From a virus (taxonomy: Duplodnaviria > Heunggongvirae > Uroviricota > Caudoviricetes), in the IMG/VR virus record IMGVR_UViG_2547132418_000015: a stretch of DNA of 48,662 bases; one strand, written 5' to 3'. The translations under genes were made by a program, and so were the position numbers. Each line of letters starts with the position of its first letter. Positions within the stretch are counted from its first letter, which is position 1. This document shows positions 2,660 to 26,881 of this stretch, piece after piece. A model generated the notes under the pieces. The model worked only from the letters and a program-made list of their open reading frames with translations, ran no database searches and was not told the origin of the DNA.

Positions 2660-3097
2660 TTAAACCCCGTTAAATGCTGCTTTAAACTCATAAGGAATAA
2701 CGGAACCATCCGGTAATGTCAGTGCAATGTAGAGGTATAACCAGCCCTGATGTAACTGTTCCGCTCTGACGTTAATCGCACTCACCCGGCCCGCTGTTTT
2801 CAGCCATTCCAGCGCCTCTTCGGCATACCCTCTGGCGCGTTCCAGCGTATCCGGTGTGGCTTTTTCACGTGATAACAGCCACAACCGCGAACCGATGGGG
2901 CGGTCGCGGTAACTGTCACCCCACCATCCACGGCGATCATCTGAACCATCCGGCAGCGTGTCAGAATCCAGCGCGCGCCGGTCGGTAAACAGGGAGATTG
3001 TCACATCGGTCGTCAGACTGTCGTCGGTCAGCATATCAATGCCATCCTGTGCAATATCGCCGCGTCCGTTCGTCCAGATAATGGCTAAATCGGTCAT
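2660..3097 (-). CDS. Baseplate wedge protein (Mu gp46-like)
   Basis: 145-aa ORF between the spike and the J-like gene. Confidence 0.7.
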   Translation of the reverse strand: MTDLAIIWTNGRGDIAQDGIDMLTDDSLTTDVTISLFTDRRALDSDTLPDGSDDRRGWWGDSYRDRPIGSRLWLLSREKATPDTLERARGYAEEALEWLKTAGRVSAINVRAEQLHQGWLYLYIALTLPDGSVIPYEFKAAFNGV

Positions 3098-3687
3098 TGC
3101 ATCGGCCCTGTGGTTCCGCCGCTGTCGCCACGGTGGATATGCTTATCCGTCGATTTGCCATTGATGATGGCATCCGGGGCAGTAATATTGCTGTCGAACT
3201 GGCTTTTACCTTTAACGCCCAGACCTTTCTGGATCTCAACGTCGCCGGTAAACGTGGTTCTGGGTGTATCAACGGTCATGCTTTCATCAGCGTAAATCTC
3301 AACCGTTTTACAGGTAATGATGCAGCGCCCGTCCTTTGTCAGCCTGATACGATGCCCCTCGTGGTGGTAAATGCCTGCATCACCCGGTTCAAGATTTGTC
3401 GGGCGGTAGCGGCGGTCTTCCACCACAACGGCAATCCCCTGATCACGTTGTGCACCCACACAGGCAATCAGCGCCTCTGCGCCCGGCAGAGGAACGCTGA
3501 AATGCCCGTAATTTTGCAGGCGCTCCACTTCATCAGATTCCTCATCATCCAGCAGACCGACCTGCAGGTTCTGAACCTTTCGCCCGTCGTTAATCACGTT
3601 AACAACGGCACGCGCAAGCATCAGACGCACACGACGCATCAGCGGTGTCAGCAGGCGGTTCATGGCGGAATCATTTACTCTTTCCAC
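3094..3687 (-). CDS. Baseplate spike/assembly protein (Mu gp45-like)
   Basis: 197-aa ORF following the gp44-like gene. Confidence 0.75.
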   Translation of the reverse strand: MERVNDSAMNRLLTPLMRRVRLMLARAVVNVINDGRKVQNLQVGLLDDEESDEVERLQNYGHFSVPLPGAEALIACVGAQRDQGIAVVVEDRRYRPTNLEPGDAGIYHHEGHRIRLTKDGRCIITCKTVEIYADESMTVDTPRTTFTGDVEIQKGLGVKGKSQFDSNITAPDAIINGKSTDKHIHRGDSGGTTGPMQ

Positions 3688-4808
3688 GGCGGCGTTTTCT
3701 CCGGGTGTCTGCGATAATAATCTTCAACCAGCGCATCAACGCCATCATTACCATCCCCTCTGGATTTGCGGTCGCTTTCAACCGGCACCAGAAAGCCTTC
3801 GCGTGGTGCAAGGCTGACGCGGGTTTTCAGCCCGTCCTGGTCATTCAGTATCAGGGTGACTTTGCTGACCAGTAATTCCGTGGTTTTGATGGCATATTTC
3901 GAGGCATCAATAGTGACCAGCAGGTTTGGCATCCAGAGTTGCCCGTCCTTGCGAGTCCATCCGTCAATTTCAGCCTCAAAGGTGATGGATTTTGCCAGTC
4001 TGCGGCGTTGCTCACGCAGGGCGCGGGCCTGTGCATCCTTCGCCGTAATTTTGCTGTCGGCAATGATGATCATCGGTCTGTAACGGGTTACATCACTGTC
4101 AGTGGCGGTCCCTTTCCGGGAGACGATACTTTTCGCATCAATATCATCACCCTCAGCGCCGTTTGCGCGGGCATAACCCTTGACAATGTATTCGCTGAAC
4201 CGGTCACGGAAATCTTCGTCAAAATCCACCGTCAGCAGATTTTTCCCGAGGATCAGCTCATCAGTGACCGTACTGGCAGCCCGGCTGAATACCAGCTCTC
4301 CGGCGGCATTGCTGGTCATCAGTACACCACGTGCGCGGGAGGCCCGCACCAGCGCTTCGTAAACCGTTTCTGAATGGTCAAGCGTAAAAGACGGAAACGA
4401 CGCTGCGCTTTCCTTGTCTGACAGCTCCCAGCGAACGGTAACGCCATAAGGGGCGCACAGGTCACGCGCAATCTGCTCCAGTGTGCGGTTTTTCCACTGT
4501 CCGCCACTGTAAACGGCAGCACAGTCAATCAGGTCAGCCGTTTTGTCACGTCCGGCGACAGTGATTTTCATACTGTCAGCGGTCATCTGGCGTCGCCGTG
4601 AATCGATATAACCGGTGCAGACAATCTGCCCCCCGATTTCGAGCGTGAACTTCTTCCCCGGAGCCAGCCCGGATAAATCCGTGCCCGGTGGCACGTTCAC
4701 CCCCAGCTCAAAATATCCGGCTACGGATTCAATCGAGCGGGTGACAGAGACTGACGTCCAGCCGGTAAAAAGCCTGCCATCCGTTCGCAGCGTGACGGTA
4801 TTACTCAT
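3675..4808 (-). CDS. Baseplate hub/tail protein (Mu P-like)
   Basis: 377-aa ORF, synteny with Mu P. Confidence 0.75.
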
Positions 4809-6288
4809 TAATCACCTCAATACTGACACCACCGGGAACAAACAACGGGTTGCTGATACCGTTCCTGCGGGCCAGCCGTTGCCAGTTCCGGCTGTTTCCT
4901 GTGTAACGGTACAGGGCCACCATTGCAGGCATCGTCTCCGGCAGACGGTGCGTTTCACTACCCGCCAGTTGCAGCCCGCGTTTTTCCAGGTCGGCAACAA
5001 CCAGCAGACGCAGTTGCGTAAGCTGAACGCTGTCTGTCGAAAAGCCCTGCTCAGATGCCGTCAGAATGACGGTATCCAGCGCAGCCCCCAGCATGGCGGC
5101 TGTTTTTCCGATATCGGACACACTTTCAAATACCGGGGGCGTGGCTGTACCACTGTCTGAAAAGGATACCTGTGAAAAGCCGCCGTCCGGGGTTATGGCA
5201 GTTAACTGTAACTGTCCCTGTGTGACGGTAGCAGATGTGCTGCTGGCCCCGCTGGCTGTGCCGGTTGTGGTGGACGGGGCATCCAGTACAGGTGCACGGG
5301 TGGCATTATCCCTCCGGCGACTGAAATCCAGTGCCGCAGTCAGTGCCTGGCTGGCAGCTTCTGCCCGGTATGTCTGCGCCGCTGCCAGCATGACGTAGTT
5401 CAGTGTGGCAATATTTTTTTCTGCAACCGGACTGTTGTACGAGGTTGTGATTGCCCCCTGTCTGCCTGCGGTGGCGGCATGGCGACGTTCGAACCGCTGC
5501 GCCAGACGGTTCCAGGTGGAAAATGCTGTCCGGGTATCGCATAACGATGAAACGCCGGATAACGCCCCCATCAGCGAGGAGGCCAGCATGGCTGGTTTAT
5601 TTATCAGGCCGGTCACAGAGCCTTTCATCGCAGAAAGCGATCCCATCAGACCGCTGACAGTCTGCGTAACCCCCAGATTGTCCACCGCATCACTGATATC
5701 ATCGATGACACCGGTTACAGCTTCCATCACGGCGGTTGCCGCCGCAGTGCCATCTTTTACGGTCTGCCAGACAGAGGACAGCGTATCTCCCAGAGAACCG
5801 GTTACAGCAACGGACTGTGCCGGTACGGCTGCACTGGTGTCTGTCTCTGCGTCCGGGGCAGTATCCTGCAACGACGGATAAACGGTAACGGTGAACGCGT
5901 AATAATTCAGTTCATCCGCTTTAGTGCGGCATTCCCATGAATCCACCATGACGGCCACAGTGCCGAAATCAGGATGTACCAGCTCACCGCTACCCGGAGC
6001 ATCAAGAGCATCCATCAGCGCACCCGCTTCATCTCTGGCAGTCTCTGCGTTGCTGTTCAGAATGCAGATGCTGAATGTGCGGGAGCGAAGCTTTTTCCCC
6101 AGGTCGTTGACCCCGCCGGTATCACGTAACGGGTACTCACGTTTAACCAGACGACGTCCGCCAGCCTGTTTTTGCTCCTCGATGACGAGAAACGGCACGT
6201 TACGGAACGTGCCTTTGCCGGTTGTTTTCCTGCCTCCACCGGTTTTATCCCGGACAGCATTAACGGCATTTAAAGCATCTTCAAACAT
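4801..6288 (-). CDS. DNA circularisation protein N-like tail protein (Mu gp43-like)
   Basis: 495-aa ORF directly downstream of the tape measure gene. Confidence 0.75.
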
Positions 6289-22723: not shown

Positions 22724-23086
22724 TTACCCGAACAGACGAGCGCGAAAACGAAAGGAGAGCCAGAACGTCAGCAATCCGGCCAGCGCCCAGATGACATACT
22801 CAGGACCCGTTTTCAGTTGAGACGTTGCCATCACGGCTAATCCCAGCCCGGACAGCCCCCCCAGCCAGGTCAGAGGCCAGACGAACCGGGCAAAATGTTC
22901 AGGCACCCGGCAGCTCATTATCAGCGCATCCAGATAATCACCGGCAACACATAAAGCAACACTGAAAACCGAGGCACAGCAAAACATCAGCGCGCGCCAG
23001 CCACAAAACAGACTTATCCACAATAACAGCGCCAGTAATACCACCGATAAAAAATCAGGCCACTGACGAGCAGAACGCTCAGACAT
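22724..23086 (-). CDS. Integral membrane protein
   Basis: ORF 22724..23137; start at ATG 23086 (MSERSARQWPDFLSVVLLALLLWISLF...) with AGGGAG ribosome-binding site; several hydrophobic segments. Confidence 0.6.
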   Translation of the reverse strand: MSERSARQWPDFLSVVLLALLLWISLFCGWRALMFCCASVFSVALCVAGDYLDALIMSCRVPEHFARFVWPLTWLGGLSGLGLAVMATSQLKTGPEYVIWALAGLLTFWLSFRFRARLFG

Positions 23087-23297
23087 AATGTTTCTCCCTG
23101 TAAAGCAGGCAATGATGAAGAATTTCCGGCATATCAACTGACTGCCAGCCTTTCATGTAATAACTGCCGTGGGTGCCATCATGACCGGTATAGTCGCGGG
23201 GCGCAGGACGTGGCCCACCGGCGACACGGCGCAAAACCTCCTGACGCAGCCGCTCACGTCTGCCAAGATGAAAGGATGCATTCCAGCCTTTACCCAT
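23079..23297 (-). CDS. Hypothetical 72-aa protein
   Basis: ORF with GGGGA ribosome-binding site, overlapping the next gene start by 8 nt. Confidence 0.4.
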   Translation of the reverse strand: MGKGWNASFHLGRRERLRQEVLRRVAGGPRPAPRDYTGHDGTHGSYYMKGWQSVDMPEILHHCLLYREKHYV

Positions 23298-23374
23298 GAT
23301 GATTTTCCCCGGTACGGTTATTCATCACAGGATATTGAGGACGTAAAAAAAGCCGGATTAACCGGCTTTACTGT

Positions 23375-23764
23375 TTACAGAAGTGAGGGCTGGTACTGGC
23401 GGTATTTCAGCCGTCGCATCCGGCGAATGGCTTTGTACACCGTATTGAAAGTGACACCATAACGGGTGGTCAGTTCGCTGACGTTGCGACCGTTAAAATC
23501 ATTCCAGATACGCAAATCCCGAATCAGCGAGTCCAGAACCTGACCGCGTGGAATGTAGACCTGGCCGCCGCCCAGATGCTTACAGATAGCCACAACAATC
23601 TCCAGTGAATGGGCAGGATCAACACCCAGCCGGGACAATTCCCCGCGTAGTAAATCGTTCAGCTCCGCCAGCAGTGCCGGAAAGCGTGACGTATCCTCTG
23701 CGGGATTGTCAAGATGTGCCAGGATGGTGTCATCCTGCAAATCACCAAATAAATCTTCCGTCAT
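23375..23764 (-). CDS. mor: Middle operon regulator Mor (Mor/C family)
   Basis: 129-aa ORF immediately downstream of the GemA-like gene. Confidence 0.85.
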   Translation of the reverse strand: MTEDLFGDLQDDTILAHLDNPAEDTSRFPALLAELNDLLRGELSRLGVDPAHSLEIVVAICKHLGGGQVYIPRGQVLDSLIRDLRIWNDFNGRNVSELTTRYGVTFNTVYKAIRRMRRLKYRQYQPSLL

Positions 23765-24312
23765 TGTGCCATCCTCCGCGTCTTTCTGGCATGGGCATAA
23801 GCCGCCGTCATGGCATCATAGCCGCGCAGTTCACGCCCGGACGGACTGACCGGCAATGGAAGCCCGTGACGGGAAAAGGCTTCACGAATACAGCGGATGT
23901 GCCACTGTTTCAGGGTTTCAAGCACAACCTGCAACGATTCTCCGTGGCACCACGCCAGTGTGGAAACCCCCTGTCCGCCGTTGCGTTTCGCTGTCAGGCG
24001 CTGAACATATTTATCCAGCGCCACATCACCGCCATCGGTAATAAAACCGTCTTCTGCCATCTGCTGCCAGACTTTGTATACCTTCTCGCGGGGAGTGGCA
24101 TACCCCTTAAAGCGGCGACGTGGATGTTTATTCAGCTTCTTAAAGCCGCGTTCTTTCATGGCATCGAGCACCTGTTCCAGTTGCGTGACCGTCAGCTCGC
24201 GGCAACTGGTTTTGCCCGTTTTCTGCATCAGAAAAGCGCGGTAAGTGTCGTCGTCGAGTTGTAGCTCCCGACGGGCGACATGGATTAATTTAATCAGGGA
24301 TGTGCGATTCAT
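23761..24312 (-). CDS. gemA: GemA-like regulatory protein (Mu gp16)
   Basis: ORF 23761..24480; start placed at ATG 24312 (MNRTSLIKLIHVARRELQLDDDTYRAF...) with GAGGTG ribosome-binding site. Confidence 0.8.
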   Translation of the reverse strand: MNRTSLIKLIHVARRELQLDDDTYRAFLMQKTGKTSCRELTVTQLEQVLDAMKERGFKKLNKHPRRRFKGYATPREKVYKVWQQMAEDGFITDGGDVALDKYVQRLTAKRNGGQGVSTLAWCHGESLQVVLETLKQWHIRCIREAFSRHGLPLPVSPSGRELRGYDAMTAAYAHARKTRRMAQ

Positions 24313-24342
24313 TTGCTCACCTCTCATATTAAGGAATGAGAT

Positions 24343-24759
24343 ATGAAAATTGATTATGACGAGATAGCCAGAATATTTGATGTTTTTCTGGAGGCCGACA
24401 CCGCATTCATTCGACTGGAAGATGTCGGCTGGGATTGTTCTCAGCGGCACAGCGACAGCCATCAGAAGCTGGTTTTCCATCTTCTGTTGCTGGTTGAAAA
24501 TGGTTTTATCAGCAACAGATATCTGGAAACAGGCACCGCAAAAAGCATTGGTCTCACCCCAACAAGCCTCGGATATTCATATTCAGGCACCAGTGTCAGA
24601 CTTACACAAGATGGTCATGATTTTGCGAAAGCACTACATCAAAAACCCATTCTTGAGCGCATAAAACAGGACCTTGCCGACGCCCCGATGACGCTCGTAA
24701 CAGACGTCGGCAAACAGTGGTTAACCTCGTTTCTTAAAAAGAAACTCGGGATTGAATAG
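24343..24759 (+). CDS. Hypothetical 138-aa protein on the opposite strand inside the phage early region
   Basis: ATG with AAGGAA ribosome-binding site; diverges from gemA across a 30-bp gap; 3' end overlaps the 24721..25032 gene by 39 nt. Confidence 0.55.
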   Translation: MKIDYDEIARIFDVFLEADTAFIRLEDVGWDCSQRHSDSHQKLVFHLLLLVENGFISNRYLETGTAKSIGLTPTSLGYSYSGTSVRLTQDGHDFAKALHQKPILERIKQDLADAPMTLVTDVGKQWLTSFLKKKLGIE

Positions 24760-25032
24760 TTCCCTGTTCATACGTTGCAGCGCATCAAGGGCGGCGACAG
24801 CCGCCACTTTATTGTTACCATCAGCAATAGTGCGGAGATTTTCAATAATCCAGTGAGGACTCAGTGACTCAGCAATAATGCCAAACCGGTACGCCATGAC
24901 TTCATCAATAGCTTTTTCATGAGACGACTCATATACAAAACTCACAAAGTCATGCACTTCTTTTTTCGGCAAACCACCGGCAATCAGCAGGGCGGCAAGC
25001 TCTTCTGATTTTGAAAATACACCATTATTCAT
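24721..25032 (-). CDS. Hypothetical early-region protein
   Basis: ORF 24721..25047 (GTG); ATG at 25032 with AAGGTG ribosome-binding site is the likely start. Confidence 0.55.
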   Translation of the reverse strand: MNNGVFSKSEELAALLIAGGLPKKEVHDFVSFVYESSHEKAIDEVMAYRFGIIAESLSPHWIIENLRTIADGNNKVAAVAALDALQRMNRELFNPEFLFKKRG

Positions 25033-25033
25033 A

Positions 25034-25727
25034 TCACTCACCTTCACAATTCATGCACGCCGTGTCATCGCCCATATCGCAGTGGTTGCATTTCTGCCCA
25101 CCACAATGAGGGCACTCTTTCAGATATTCAGGGTTTTCATTACCGCAGGTCGGGCATTCCTGTTTCACCGTGGTGAATGTCCCCAGCCACGAATACGAAT
25201 TTTCACCGACTGTCTTTTTCCCCGTTATTTCTGAATCAGAACTAATACAGTGTTTTTCAACCCATGCCACACGTGCTGAATTCAGGTGGCATCTGGCCAA
25301 TTTGCTTTCGTTTCTGTAATGTTTGCTGTCCCGGTTAAATGGCAATTTCTCATTCAGCCCTGCTGAGATAAAGTCCGCATGTAATTGTTCTAATGCGGCT
25401 TCACTGTCTGCACCGGTTGATTCAAAATAATCGTAAGCATTGGCACATAATCCGGCAGCCCGGGTAAATACATCATCGCCCGTCTCCATTGCCCCATTCT
25501 TTAACCATCGGTTGTAGGCTGTATAAAAACTATAAAGTTGCTTTCTGATACAGGTAGTGGCAGTTCCGCCATTAACTGACGCTGGCGTAACATAGCCAGC
25601 TCTGCATAAAGCAGAACGAAGTATATCCAGAACCTGCCAGGCATCTTCTCCTTCAATCACGCTACAGTTTTTGTACACCAGGACGTCCCGGCCACAACTT
25701 TTATCAATACCCCAGTCTTCAAATTTC
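25034..25727 (-). CDS. Hypothetical protein with C-terminal Cys-rich (zinc-ribbon-like) tail
   Basis: ORF 25034..25792; likely GTG start at about 25727 with GGAGG ribosome-binding site overlapping the upstream stop; C-terminus CPTCGNENPEYLKECPHCGGQKCNHCDMGDDTACMNCEGE. Confidence 0.55.
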
Positions 25728-26258
25728 ACAACCAGCCTCCTGCACCACACCCGGTGCTGATGAAAAATCAATGATGAGATAACGCAGTACATGGTCGGTG
25801 ATATTCCAGGCGCTGGAACTGCAAATAAACCGCCCCAGCCGGATATCGATATAAGCCATCACAAAACGGGGCATTCCCTGTTTGCACATCTCGTCATCCA
25901 CTTCTGCAACGATGTGAACGGACTCACAGGTCAGTACGCCTGTCGCAAACTCTTTTGCCAGTGCGGGGATGGTATTACCTTCCACCCAGGGTAATGAGCG
26001 ACGCCAGTTGCACCACACCGCATCATCAACAGCAGGCTGCTCAGTTGCGTTTCGTCTTACCGGCGGCGTCTGACGCGGGCGCGGAACGTCATAAAATCCG
26101 TTGCATTCGGTGAGCACTCCGGCATCAACCGCATCACGCAGGAAATACACCATTGCGGAGGGTGGCATCTGCATTTTTTCAGCCAGAACCCCGCAGGTCA
26201 GGCGTCCGTAAGCCCGTAATAATGTGCTGACACCATTCAGAATTTTTGCATCAACCAT
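25719..26258 (-). CDS. Hypothetical early-region protein
   Basis: 179-aa ORF with GAGGA ribosome-binding site. Confidence 0.6.
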   Translation of the reverse strand: MVDAKILNGVSTLLRAYGRLTCGVLAEKMQMPPSAMVYFLRDAVDAGVLTECNGFYDVPRPRQTPPVRRNATEQPAVDDAVWCNWRRSLPWVEGNTIPALAKEFATGVLTCESVHIVAEVDDEMCKQGMPRFVMAYIDIRLGRFICSSSAWNITDHVLRYLIIDFSSAPGVVQEAGCEI

Positions 26259-26356
26259 GTTTTATTCCTCAGTAATCTGTTTCAGGCGCGAGCAATCCCC
26301 TGACGCATCGCGCCATAATTAAAAGAATGTGAATTAATTAAATATTAATGGTGGTA

Positions 26357-26881
26357 TTAAATACCGGCTTCCTGTTCAAACGGAATAATGGAAAAATCTT
26401 CAATTCCCGATTTAACCGTAATTCCGGCAACACCTGCGACGGCTTTTGGTTCCAGTAAAATCGCCTCCTTGTTGATTTCCTGCTTCGTGCGAATAAAGCG
26501 TTGCAGGCCAAGACGCTCCAGCGTTTCCATCACTGCATCCATACCACGAATACTTACTGATGGTGGACGGCCCCGCCACGATACATCACCGGTGACAAGA
26601 TTCGCCGTCTTCACTTTGCCGCCGTTCGTCAGTTCGTCGCGGTTCGCTTCACACCATCCCTGAACGCCTTTTGAAAGGGTTTCAATATCGGTTTTAATCG
26701 GTGCAATCCGGGCCGCAAATTTCTCCGTAATTTCCGCGATGGCATCATTCATTTCCGTTTCCAGACGTGATGCTTCGCGCTGTAAATCCCCGATGCGTTT
26801 AATATCGGTAATCACCGCATCGCGGTTTTGTGGCACATAAGCCGCTGCGGCACTCTTGATACGTTTTGCTGGTTTAGCCAT
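26357..26881 (-). CDS. gam: Gam-like host-nuclease inhibitor
   Basis: 174-aa ORF MAKPAKRIKSAAAAYVPQNRDAVITDIKRIGDLQREASRLETEMNDAIAEI..., same length and position as Mu Gam. Confidence 0.85.
   Translation of the reverse strand: MAKPAKRIKSAAAAYVPQNRDAVITDIKRIGDLQREASRLETEMNDAIAEITEKFAARIAPIKTDIETLSKGVQGWCEANRDELTNGGKVKTANLVTGDVSWRGRPPSVSIRGMDAVMETLERLGLQRFIRTKQEINKEAILLEPKAVAGVAGITVKSGIEDFSIIPFEQEAGI

Follow-up and report, generated by a model that had tools for sequence, protein, structure and literature searches.

Morons, as described by Hendrix and colleagues, are independent transcription units inserted in phage operons. In the immI region of phage P22, mnt is divergent from arc-ant, and beside mnt lies sieA, the gene of a membrane protein. 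Mu is a model phage, yet its semi-essential early region is still mostly annotated as 'hypothetical'. For Fc02, a Mu-like transposable phage of Pseudomonas, overlapping opposite-strand genes and prophage-expressed superinfection exclusion are reported; these genes lie beside the repressor gene, and both their proteins and the type of their overlap differ from those of the pair described below (PMC9936078).

Here we analyzed a stretch of viral DNA of 48,662 nucleotides (the window), in which a small plus-strand gene and its convergent neighbour lie upstream of gemA. The region is part of an E. coli prophage that resembles Mu. In a DNA comparison of window positions 23300–26300, 52–65% of the segment is covered by matches to Mu, D108, SfMu and Mu-like phages of Yersinia, with 93–96% identity in the matched parts. 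The early operon is carried by the minus strand and runs from the transposase genes through gam and gemA to mor. The features of the locus are given below.

24343–24759, plus strand: gene of a 138-aa acidic winged-helix protein (phrog_585; divergent DUF2513/YjcQ relative), from ORF, profile match and predicted fold
24331–24336, plus strand: Shine-Dalgarno-like AAGGAA with the ATG 6 nt downstream, from the window letters; the upstream sequence is identical in relatives L006 and L007
24313–24342, no strand: divergent spacer of 30 bp with both ribosome-binding sites and without a GC hairpin, from the window letters
23761–24312, minus strand: gemA, the divergent neighbour (context)
24721–25032, minus strand: partner gene (phrog_1988), in the direction of the early operon, encoding an all-helical protein of 103 aa
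24721–24759, no strand: tail-to-tail coding overlap of 39 nt, holding the palindrome GTTTCTT-AAA-AAGAAAC (24729–24745)
24790–24805, plus strand: GC hairpin GGCGGC-GACA-GCCGCC, then ACTTTATTGT, candidate terminator of the plus-strand transcript
24659–24714, minus strand: early-strand hairpin with a 13-bp stem at 24673–24714, then GUCCUGUUUUAUG, candidate terminator or attenuator ahead of gemA

The gemA gene matches Pfam GemA (E 1.4e-31) and is annotated by PGAP as a gene of 552 nt in near-identical prophages; as it starts at 24312, the divergent spacer is 30 bp. For the partner gene, the ATG start agrees with SfMu gp14 and with PGAP, and an alternative GTG at 25047 would give a protein of 108 aa. 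The layout reported by the sequence-only reading holds at every coordinate, that is, a plus-strand ORF of 138 aa with an AAGGAA ribosome-binding site, diverging from gemA by 30 bp and overlapping the 3′ end of the 24721–25032 gene by 39 nt. Its statement that this is the sole plus-strand gene of the early region is true according to PGAP in a prophage that is 99.2% identical over a 501-nt query (24300–24800); the PGAP annotation of E. coli 22KM0354, which has a cassette with 99.2% identity, shows the 138-aa gene as the sole plus-strand gene from the Ner-like gene to mor. Like a moron, the 138-aa gene varies in its presence between otherwise syntenic phages, lies antisense to the operon that it interrupts and is followed by a hairpin; unlike morons, the cassette is a pair, the second member of which is on the strand of the host operon. 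What this analysis adds is the conserved pair and its mobility, the finding that an antisense slot recurs before gemA, and the hairpins embedded in coding sequence.

The ORF at 24343–24759 is a real gene, already annotated and uncharacterised. Its product matches phrog_585 over the full length (E 5.5e-31; residues 1–137 on profile positions 1–127 of 128), and 29 homologues of 30–99% identity were found in Escherichia, Salmonella, Enterobacter, Serratia, Pantoea, Cedecea and Oceanisphaera. The profile of these homologues retrieved 450 clusters (50% identity) at E<=1e-3, nearly all of which are stand-alone proteins of 130–145 aa. In the comparison with E. coli SE11, seven of the eight differences fall in third codon positions of the plus frame (dN/dS 0.09), and gene pairs with 47–62% protein identity gave dN/dS values of 0.17–0.24. 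PGAP gives the name 'DUF2513 domain-containing protein' to this gene in five complete E. coli genomes, including SE11 and 22KM0354. A chance ORF or mis-annotation, the region being in truth a non-coding spacer or a minus-strand gene, would have some precedent in one re-annotation of Mu, in which the opposite-strand gp15 was replaced by a small early-strand ORF. This reading is excluded by the full-length family matches, the purifying selection in the plus frame, the confident fold and the lack of any competing minus-strand ORF, and we give it practically no probability. The minus strand of 24313–24720 holds just one ORF, of 42 aa, along with a spurious upstream extension of gemA, and the minus-strand Mu homologue that the sequence-only reading had named as evidence against its view is absent from this interval. 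At the DNA level, phage records gave no match to window positions 24300–24782.

Structure prediction, which had been proposed earlier for both proteins, gave a globular model for the 138-aa protein, with an acidic winged-helix domain and then three helices, and an all-helical model without a recognisable fold for the 103-aa partner. Against Pfam DUF2513 (PF10711) the 138-aa protein scores 15.8 bits (E 0.018), which does not reach the gathering threshold of 29.6 bits; DUF2513 is weakly matched by 22 of its 24 relatives (best E 3e-6), and two distant family members, P0143 (48.4 bits) and P0201 (34.5 bits), lie over the threshold. For these reasons the protein is filed as a divergent relative of DUF2513 and not as a strict member. 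A core made up of a hydrophobic helix ending in 'L.ENG.I', a wing and 'RLT..GH[DE]F' is shared by DUF2513, YjcQ (PF09639) and the 138-aa protein, and the winged-helix core with the 'LT..GH[DE]F' segment beyond the wing, by which DUF2513 is recognised, is present in the 138-aa protein. A further difference from DUF2513 is about 45 additional helical residues at the C-terminus of the 138-aa protein. To our knowledge DUF2513 has no known function; in the literature search the name was found just as a marker gene, and PF10711 was not found at all.

The likeness of the 138-aa protein to MarR and PadR is at the level of the fold (Foldseek E >= 0.05, TM 0.3–0.4), and no Pfam match to MarR or PadR family profiles was obtained. 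The pI of the protein is 5.9 and the median of the family is 5.4. The would-be recognition helix at residues 38–52 (DSHQKLVFHLLLLVE) is hydrophobic and acidic with a net charge of -1, and because of this helix and the acidic family DNA binding by the winged-helix protein is not to be assumed. Arg86, in the strand beyond the wing, is nearly invariant across the family. A transmembrane segment was found neither in the 138-aa protein (maximum 19-residue Kyte-Doolittle mean 1.08) nor in the partner (0.91). NCBIfam gave no match, the PDB sequence search gave no significant match for either family, and domain fusions in the distant relatives of the 138-aa protein were not informative. PADLOC defence models run on both families gave no consistent match; the assignment of the partner as PDC-M42B was also set aside, being a lone weak PADLOC match that is absent in the partner's relatives.

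The partner protein matches phrog_1988 over the full length (E 1e-50) and is a homologue of SfMu gp14 with 83% identity. DNA identity with SfMu starts only at 24783, which places an exchange point inside the 3′ end of the partner gene. By profile search 34 relatives of 92–104 aa were collected. The model of the partner (pLDDT 74) had no significant neighbour in structural search, no Pfam family was assigned, and the resemblance of the N-terminus to the LuxR/GerE helix-turn-helix in the PDB sequence search (E 0.17) is below significance.

The slot upstream of gemA was compared in the related phages, and the 138-aa gene is absent from it in Mu, D108, SfMu and vB_YpM_3. In Mu and SfMu the slot holds opposite-strand genes, gp15 (88 aa) and gp16 respectively, which begin about 70 nt away from gemA and overlap the 3′ end of gp14; in one later annotation of Mu, gp15 gives way to an early-strand ORF of 55 aa together with a 'semi-early promoter'. 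D108 has an unannotated opposite-strand ORF of 119 aa in the same layout (L084, 1383–1742), and in vB_YpM_3 the slot has no gene. Mu gp15 and the D108 ORF both match phrog_32893 and are therefore related to each other. The 138-aa protein matches phrog_585 only and not the Mu gp15 family (phrog_8747/phrog_32893), and hhalign gave a probability of 0.4% with Mu gp15 and 1.4% with the D108 ORF, so that neither these two nor Mu gp14, for which no homology was found either, are homologues of the pair. The question of an equivalent gene in Mu and D108, raised by the sequence-only reading, thus has a divided answer: both phages have a positional equivalent (gp15 and the 119-aa ORF) and neither is homologous. 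As in the window, the ORFs of Mu, SfMu and D108 are on the opposite strand and overlap the 3′ end of the preceding early gene; the convergent neighbour of Mu gp15 and the D108 ORF belongs to phrog_6075 and that of the 138-aa gene to phrog_1988. The layout of a small early-strand gene and a convergent antisense gene before gemA recurs with differing contents in Mu/SfMu, D108 and the window. A literature search for 'Mup15' gave unrelated matches only.

For the distribution of the pair, near-full-length relatives of the 138-aa gene were gathered from metagenomes, genomes and viral contigs; the 66 obtained were grouped in 26 clusters at 90% identity. A convergent partner of phrog_1988 type accompanies 49 of the 66 genes (14 of the 26 clusters), with stop-codon spacings of -39, -30, -18, -15, 0, +2 or +3 nt in the paired clusters and with partner identity going down to 17–30% in some of them. 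The genes at 24343–24759 and 24721–25032 are a conserved tail-to-tail pair, and the pairing is non-obligatory: the partner occurs without the winged-helix gene in SfMu and vB_YpM_3, the winged-helix gene occurs without the partner in L030–32 and in marine genomic islands, and relatives of the 143-aa marine type stand alone in Alcanivorax, Hydrogenovibrio and Sulfurimonas.

The cassette was found in at least five kinds of position. It lies immediately upstream of gemA in Mu-like phages of E. coli, Salmonella and Citrobacter; between mor and gemA in Kluyvera (L054, L090); amid baseplate genes in Providencia prophages (L047, L052, L080); in an immI-like region in the Salmonella prophages L082/83, with a similar arrangement in L050 and L030; and in other Mu-like phages with gemA-like genes farther off (L028, L038). 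At each paired locus examined, the partner has the orientation of the lytic operon around it, and the winged-helix gene runs antisense to that operon. The early genes that flank this cassette in E. coli differ between the window, SE11 and 22KM0354. In L082/83 an Arc/Mnt-like gene is followed after 10 nt by the start of the winged-helix gene; the two form one transcription unit, from which arc and a P22-type antirepressor gene diverge. Compared with the P22 immI region, the winged-helix gene thereby occupies the position directly downstream of the Arc/Mnt-like gene, which is typical of lysogen-expressed exclusion genes; the differences are that SieA is a membrane protein and the winged-helix protein is soluble, and that the window itself has no immI region. 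These placements show the pair to be a mobile accessory cassette that several kinds of enterobacterial prophage carry.

The sequence-only reading had regarded the layout as typical of independently regulated cargo. The cargo part agrees with the absence of the gene from Mu, D108, SfMu and vB_YpM_3, with the occurrence of the pair in unrelated positions and with the transcription unit that the 138-aa gene shares with an Mnt-like repressor gene in immI-like regions. The part on independent regulation did not gain the same support, as consensus scans for a sigma-70-like promoter of the plus-strand gene in the window and three relatives were not above chance (in the window, no plus-strand site was obtained). 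By eye nothing convincing was seen in 24240–24342 either, and with a spacer of 30 bp any promoter of this gene would lie inside gemA. An Rfam scan of 23000–26500 returned just two sub-threshold chance matches.

Both candidate transcription ends lie within coding sequence. The plus-strand hairpin at 24790–24805 is 31 nt past the stop of the 138-aa gene, within the conserved AAVAAL codons of the partner, and its U-tract is weak; it recurs in diverged loci, though inside conserved partner codons. The minus-strand hairpin begins 7 nt past the partner stop and is embedded in codons 110–123 (LADAP...DVGK) of the plus-strand gene, its stem being built of codons 110–113 (LADA) and 120–123 (DVGK); its U-tract is weak in the window. 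Much of the conservation of the two hairpins is explained by constraint on the proteins, since each hairpin coincides with a conserved peptide motif. For the stretch at the embedded minus-strand hairpin, the window lineage as well as L007/25/26, L027, L037, L028, L029, L038 and L054 give dG values of -21 to -27 kcal/mol, and the stretch is usually more stable by 4–8 kcal/mol as minus-strand than as plus-strand RNA.

The 24313–24342 spacer of the window differs in this respect from that of other phages, since Mu, SfMu, D108, vB_YpM_3 and the Salmonella-type carriers L008 and L033/34, as well as L041, have a GC hairpin and a U-rich tract in a spacer of 51–71 nt before the gemA ribosome-binding site (the hairpin of L041 differs from that of the others). 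Among the DUF-carrying lineages the two kinds of hairpin follow an either/or pattern, four lineages against three with no exceptions: the embedded hairpin is intact in lineages with a hairpin-free gemA spacer of 30 or 58 nt (window/L006, L007, L027, L037) and degenerate where a spacer of 64–71 nt has a GC hairpin and U-run (L008, L033/34, L040/41). In L054 the residues at the site of the embedded hairpin differ (AQEAPVALLR), yet a 10-bp palindrome is present, then UUCUUCUUU. Covariation over 26 distinct family sequences was marginal, with 63.6% of cells paired against 61.7% in shuffles and 37 of 500 shuffles as high; at two base pairs U-A alternates with C-G or G-C with A-U. Because of this marginal covariation the claim rests on the either/or pattern and on L054, and the embedded hairpin is called a candidate terminator or attenuator. 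On these comparisons, the embedded early-strand hairpin appears to replace the GC hairpin that other Mu-like phages have just upstream of gemA.

The best explanation of the locus, which we hold to be on balance probable, is a mobile two-gene cassette of moron type, in which the 138-aa gene would be expressed from the prophage and the candidate terminators would be mutually embedded. The soluble acidic winged-helix protein would most likely be transcribed from the prophage on its own, in the manner of a moron, as its place behind the Mnt-like gene in L082/83 suggests, and accessory loci are reported to be often expressed in lysogens (PMC7067206). It may serve the lysogen, for example by modulating the host or by protecting against other phages. 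The partner would be transcribed with the lytic operon, which in the window is the early operon of Mu type, and may work with or counteract the winged-helix protein once the phage turns lytic. The two transcription units would end inside each other, the plus-strand hairpin in the codons of the partner and the minus-strand hairpin in those of the 138-aa gene, if both hairpins act as terminators. A more specific version is considerably less probable, and we put it forward as rather doubtful: an undescribed prophage module in which a lysogen-expressed winged-helix exclusion or defence protein is held in check during lytic growth by the partner from the lytic operon, with plus-strand codons 110–123 doubling as an opposite-strand terminator or attenuator between early transcription and gemA-mor. 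If this were true, one DNA stretch would be under selection for protein and for RNA structure on opposite strands.

The value of the locus lies in the slot upstream of gemA, which is regularly filled by an opposite-strand gene and which in the window is occupied by a version common to unrelated prophages; the cassette may carry a terminator that the operon needs at this point. The two small proteins are offered as candidates for lysogenic conversion or phage exclusion, and the locus is a clean case of convergent, mutually embedded candidate transcription ends. Its importance would rise if the pair serves in exclusion or self-immunity, or if the embedded hairpin does terminate transcription; should no function emerge, the gene would be an ordinary accessory gene correctly annotated as DUF.

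Other functions were weighed against the moron-type cassette, and each of them fits some facts and is contradicted by context, strand or co-occurrence. The sequence-only reading had named superinfection exclusion, anti-defence and toxin-antitoxin-like pairs as typical of such a layout, and none of the three was confirmed. An exclusion protein of membrane type (SieA, SieB or Imm-like) is disfavoured by the absence of a transmembrane segment. The winged-helix protein could also be a local regulator that binds the DNA upstream of gemA and controls gemA-mor as a semi-early unit, and hence the switch to middle transcription; this would suit its fold, which is that of MarR and PadR regulators, the near-invariant Arg86 beyond the wing, the divergence of the gene from gemA in most Mu-like carriers and the 'semi-early promoter' annotated in Mu at this spacer. 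We regard such a role as unlikely, because the cassette is found also amid baseplate genes and in immI-like regions where gemA is not nearby, the family is acidic with a hydrophobic and acidic would-be recognition helix, and viable Mu-like phages either have no gene in the slot (vB_YpM_3) or have unrelated ORFs there (Mu, D108).

Just as improbable is a role in counter-defence or host takeover, by which a small acidic protein made during infection would block a host immune or repair factor in the manner of Gam. The semi-essential early region is rich in genes of host interaction (Gam, Kil) and the 138-aa protein is acidic, but the gene is antisense to the early operon, so that the early transcript cannot yield the protein, and in immI-like regions its transcription unit also includes the gene of an Mnt-like maintenance repressor. 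Slightly less probable again is a toxin-antitoxin or abortive-infection pair, in which the toxic product of one gene is neutralised by that of the other: the genes are small, conserved as a pair and carried on mobile elements, and the convergent 3′ overlap would permit control by antisense RNA. A classical pair of this kind is disfavoured because the genes are convergent in every locus and do not form a co-directional operon, domains of toxins or antitoxins were not detected by Pfam, NCBIfam or PADLOC, and each gene is solitary in some intact phages or prophages; some lineages, moreover, have no overlap (gap of 0 to +3 nt). The adjacency of a Cap15-like effector gene to marine relatives, which would speak for counter-defence, was rejected as a general link, as it is found in one marine cluster only and is absent in Alcanivorax, Hydrogenovibrio and Sulfurimonas.

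The early region of the window was surveyed around the antisense winged-helix gene and its convergent partner, the SfMu gp14 homologue. Upstream of the partner, the following gene was recorded.

Window 25034-25792, minus strand: phrog_6418 gene, a 252-aa ORF

Mu and E. coli 22KM0354 have gp12/gp13 in place of this gene, and the early region shows a further mosaic joint here. The profile match begins at residue 22 of the ORF, which shares about 70 nt with the gp11-like gene, and the encoded protein has a Cys-rich, zinc ribbon-like C-terminus.

The 39-nt overlap of the winged-helix and partner genes contains a palindrome, GTTTCTT-AAA-AAGAAAC (24729-24745), and because of it the two proteins have mirror-like C-terminal peptides, FLKKK for the plus-strand protein and FLFKK for the minus-strand one. 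Split or partial copies of the winged-helix gene were also seen. In L056 (1683-2140) the gene is divided between two frames beside an intact partner, and it is apparently a frameshifted pseudogene. Eight IMG/VR contigs (L058-L065, about 4001-4162) keep the C-terminal third only, corresponding to residues 81-135 at 61-63% identity, and no partner gene was found near this fragment in any of the eight; the piece appears to be either what is left of a truncated gene or a product of recombination.

The region upstream of gemA was analyzed in the relatives, and two features were found there.

L001 (Mu) about 2530-2555, early strand: GC hairpin and U-rich tract; also in L002, L084 (D108) and L003, and at 5950-5970 of L008 (a Salmonella Mu-like carrier)
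L084 (phage D108, NC_013594) 1383-1742, plus in the locus, which is the reverse strand of the record: unannotated ORF of 119 aa

The hairpin, GGCGGTG-N4-6-CACCGCC on the early strand followed by the U-rich tract, lies immediately 5′ of the gemA ribosome-binding site and is carried by Mu, SfMu, D108, vB_YpM_3 and Salmonella Mu-like phages; the Salmonella copies, with U6-8, look like a canonical intrinsic terminator. It is absent from window 24313-24342: 27 nt are deleted there in the window lineage. The D108 ORF lies on the opposite strand in the 376-nt gap between gene 14 and gemA, which is "empty" in the annotation, and overlaps the 3′ end of gene 14 by 53 nt. It matches phrog_38610 over its full length (E 8e-83) and shares phrog_32893 with Mu gp15.

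Further antisense genes are present in other prophages.

L011 4982-5386, plus strand: second gene on the opposite strand, encoding 134 aa and placed between mor and gemA of one Salmonella Mu-like prophage
L080/L081 3841-4191, minus strand, and L047 2067-2417: second antisense gene of Providencia prophages, 116 aa

The 134-aa protein has no Pfam or PHROG match. The Providencia gene is two genes off from the winged-helix/partner pair, and its protein, whose N-terminus resembles a signal peptide, has a Pfam "Microcin" hit (PF03526) among the precomputed annotations.

In the marine metagenome contigs L012-L014 (about 2900-5100), a gene for a Cap15-like effector, consisting of a TM segment and a cyclic-dinucleotide receptor domain, lies directly downstream of the 143-aa relative and co-oriented with it, and next comes a gene whose 337-aa product shows a faint match to a nucleotidyltransferase. 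This set looks like a CBASS-like module of unusual gene order, and the surrounding island holds toxin-antitoxin and transposase genes.
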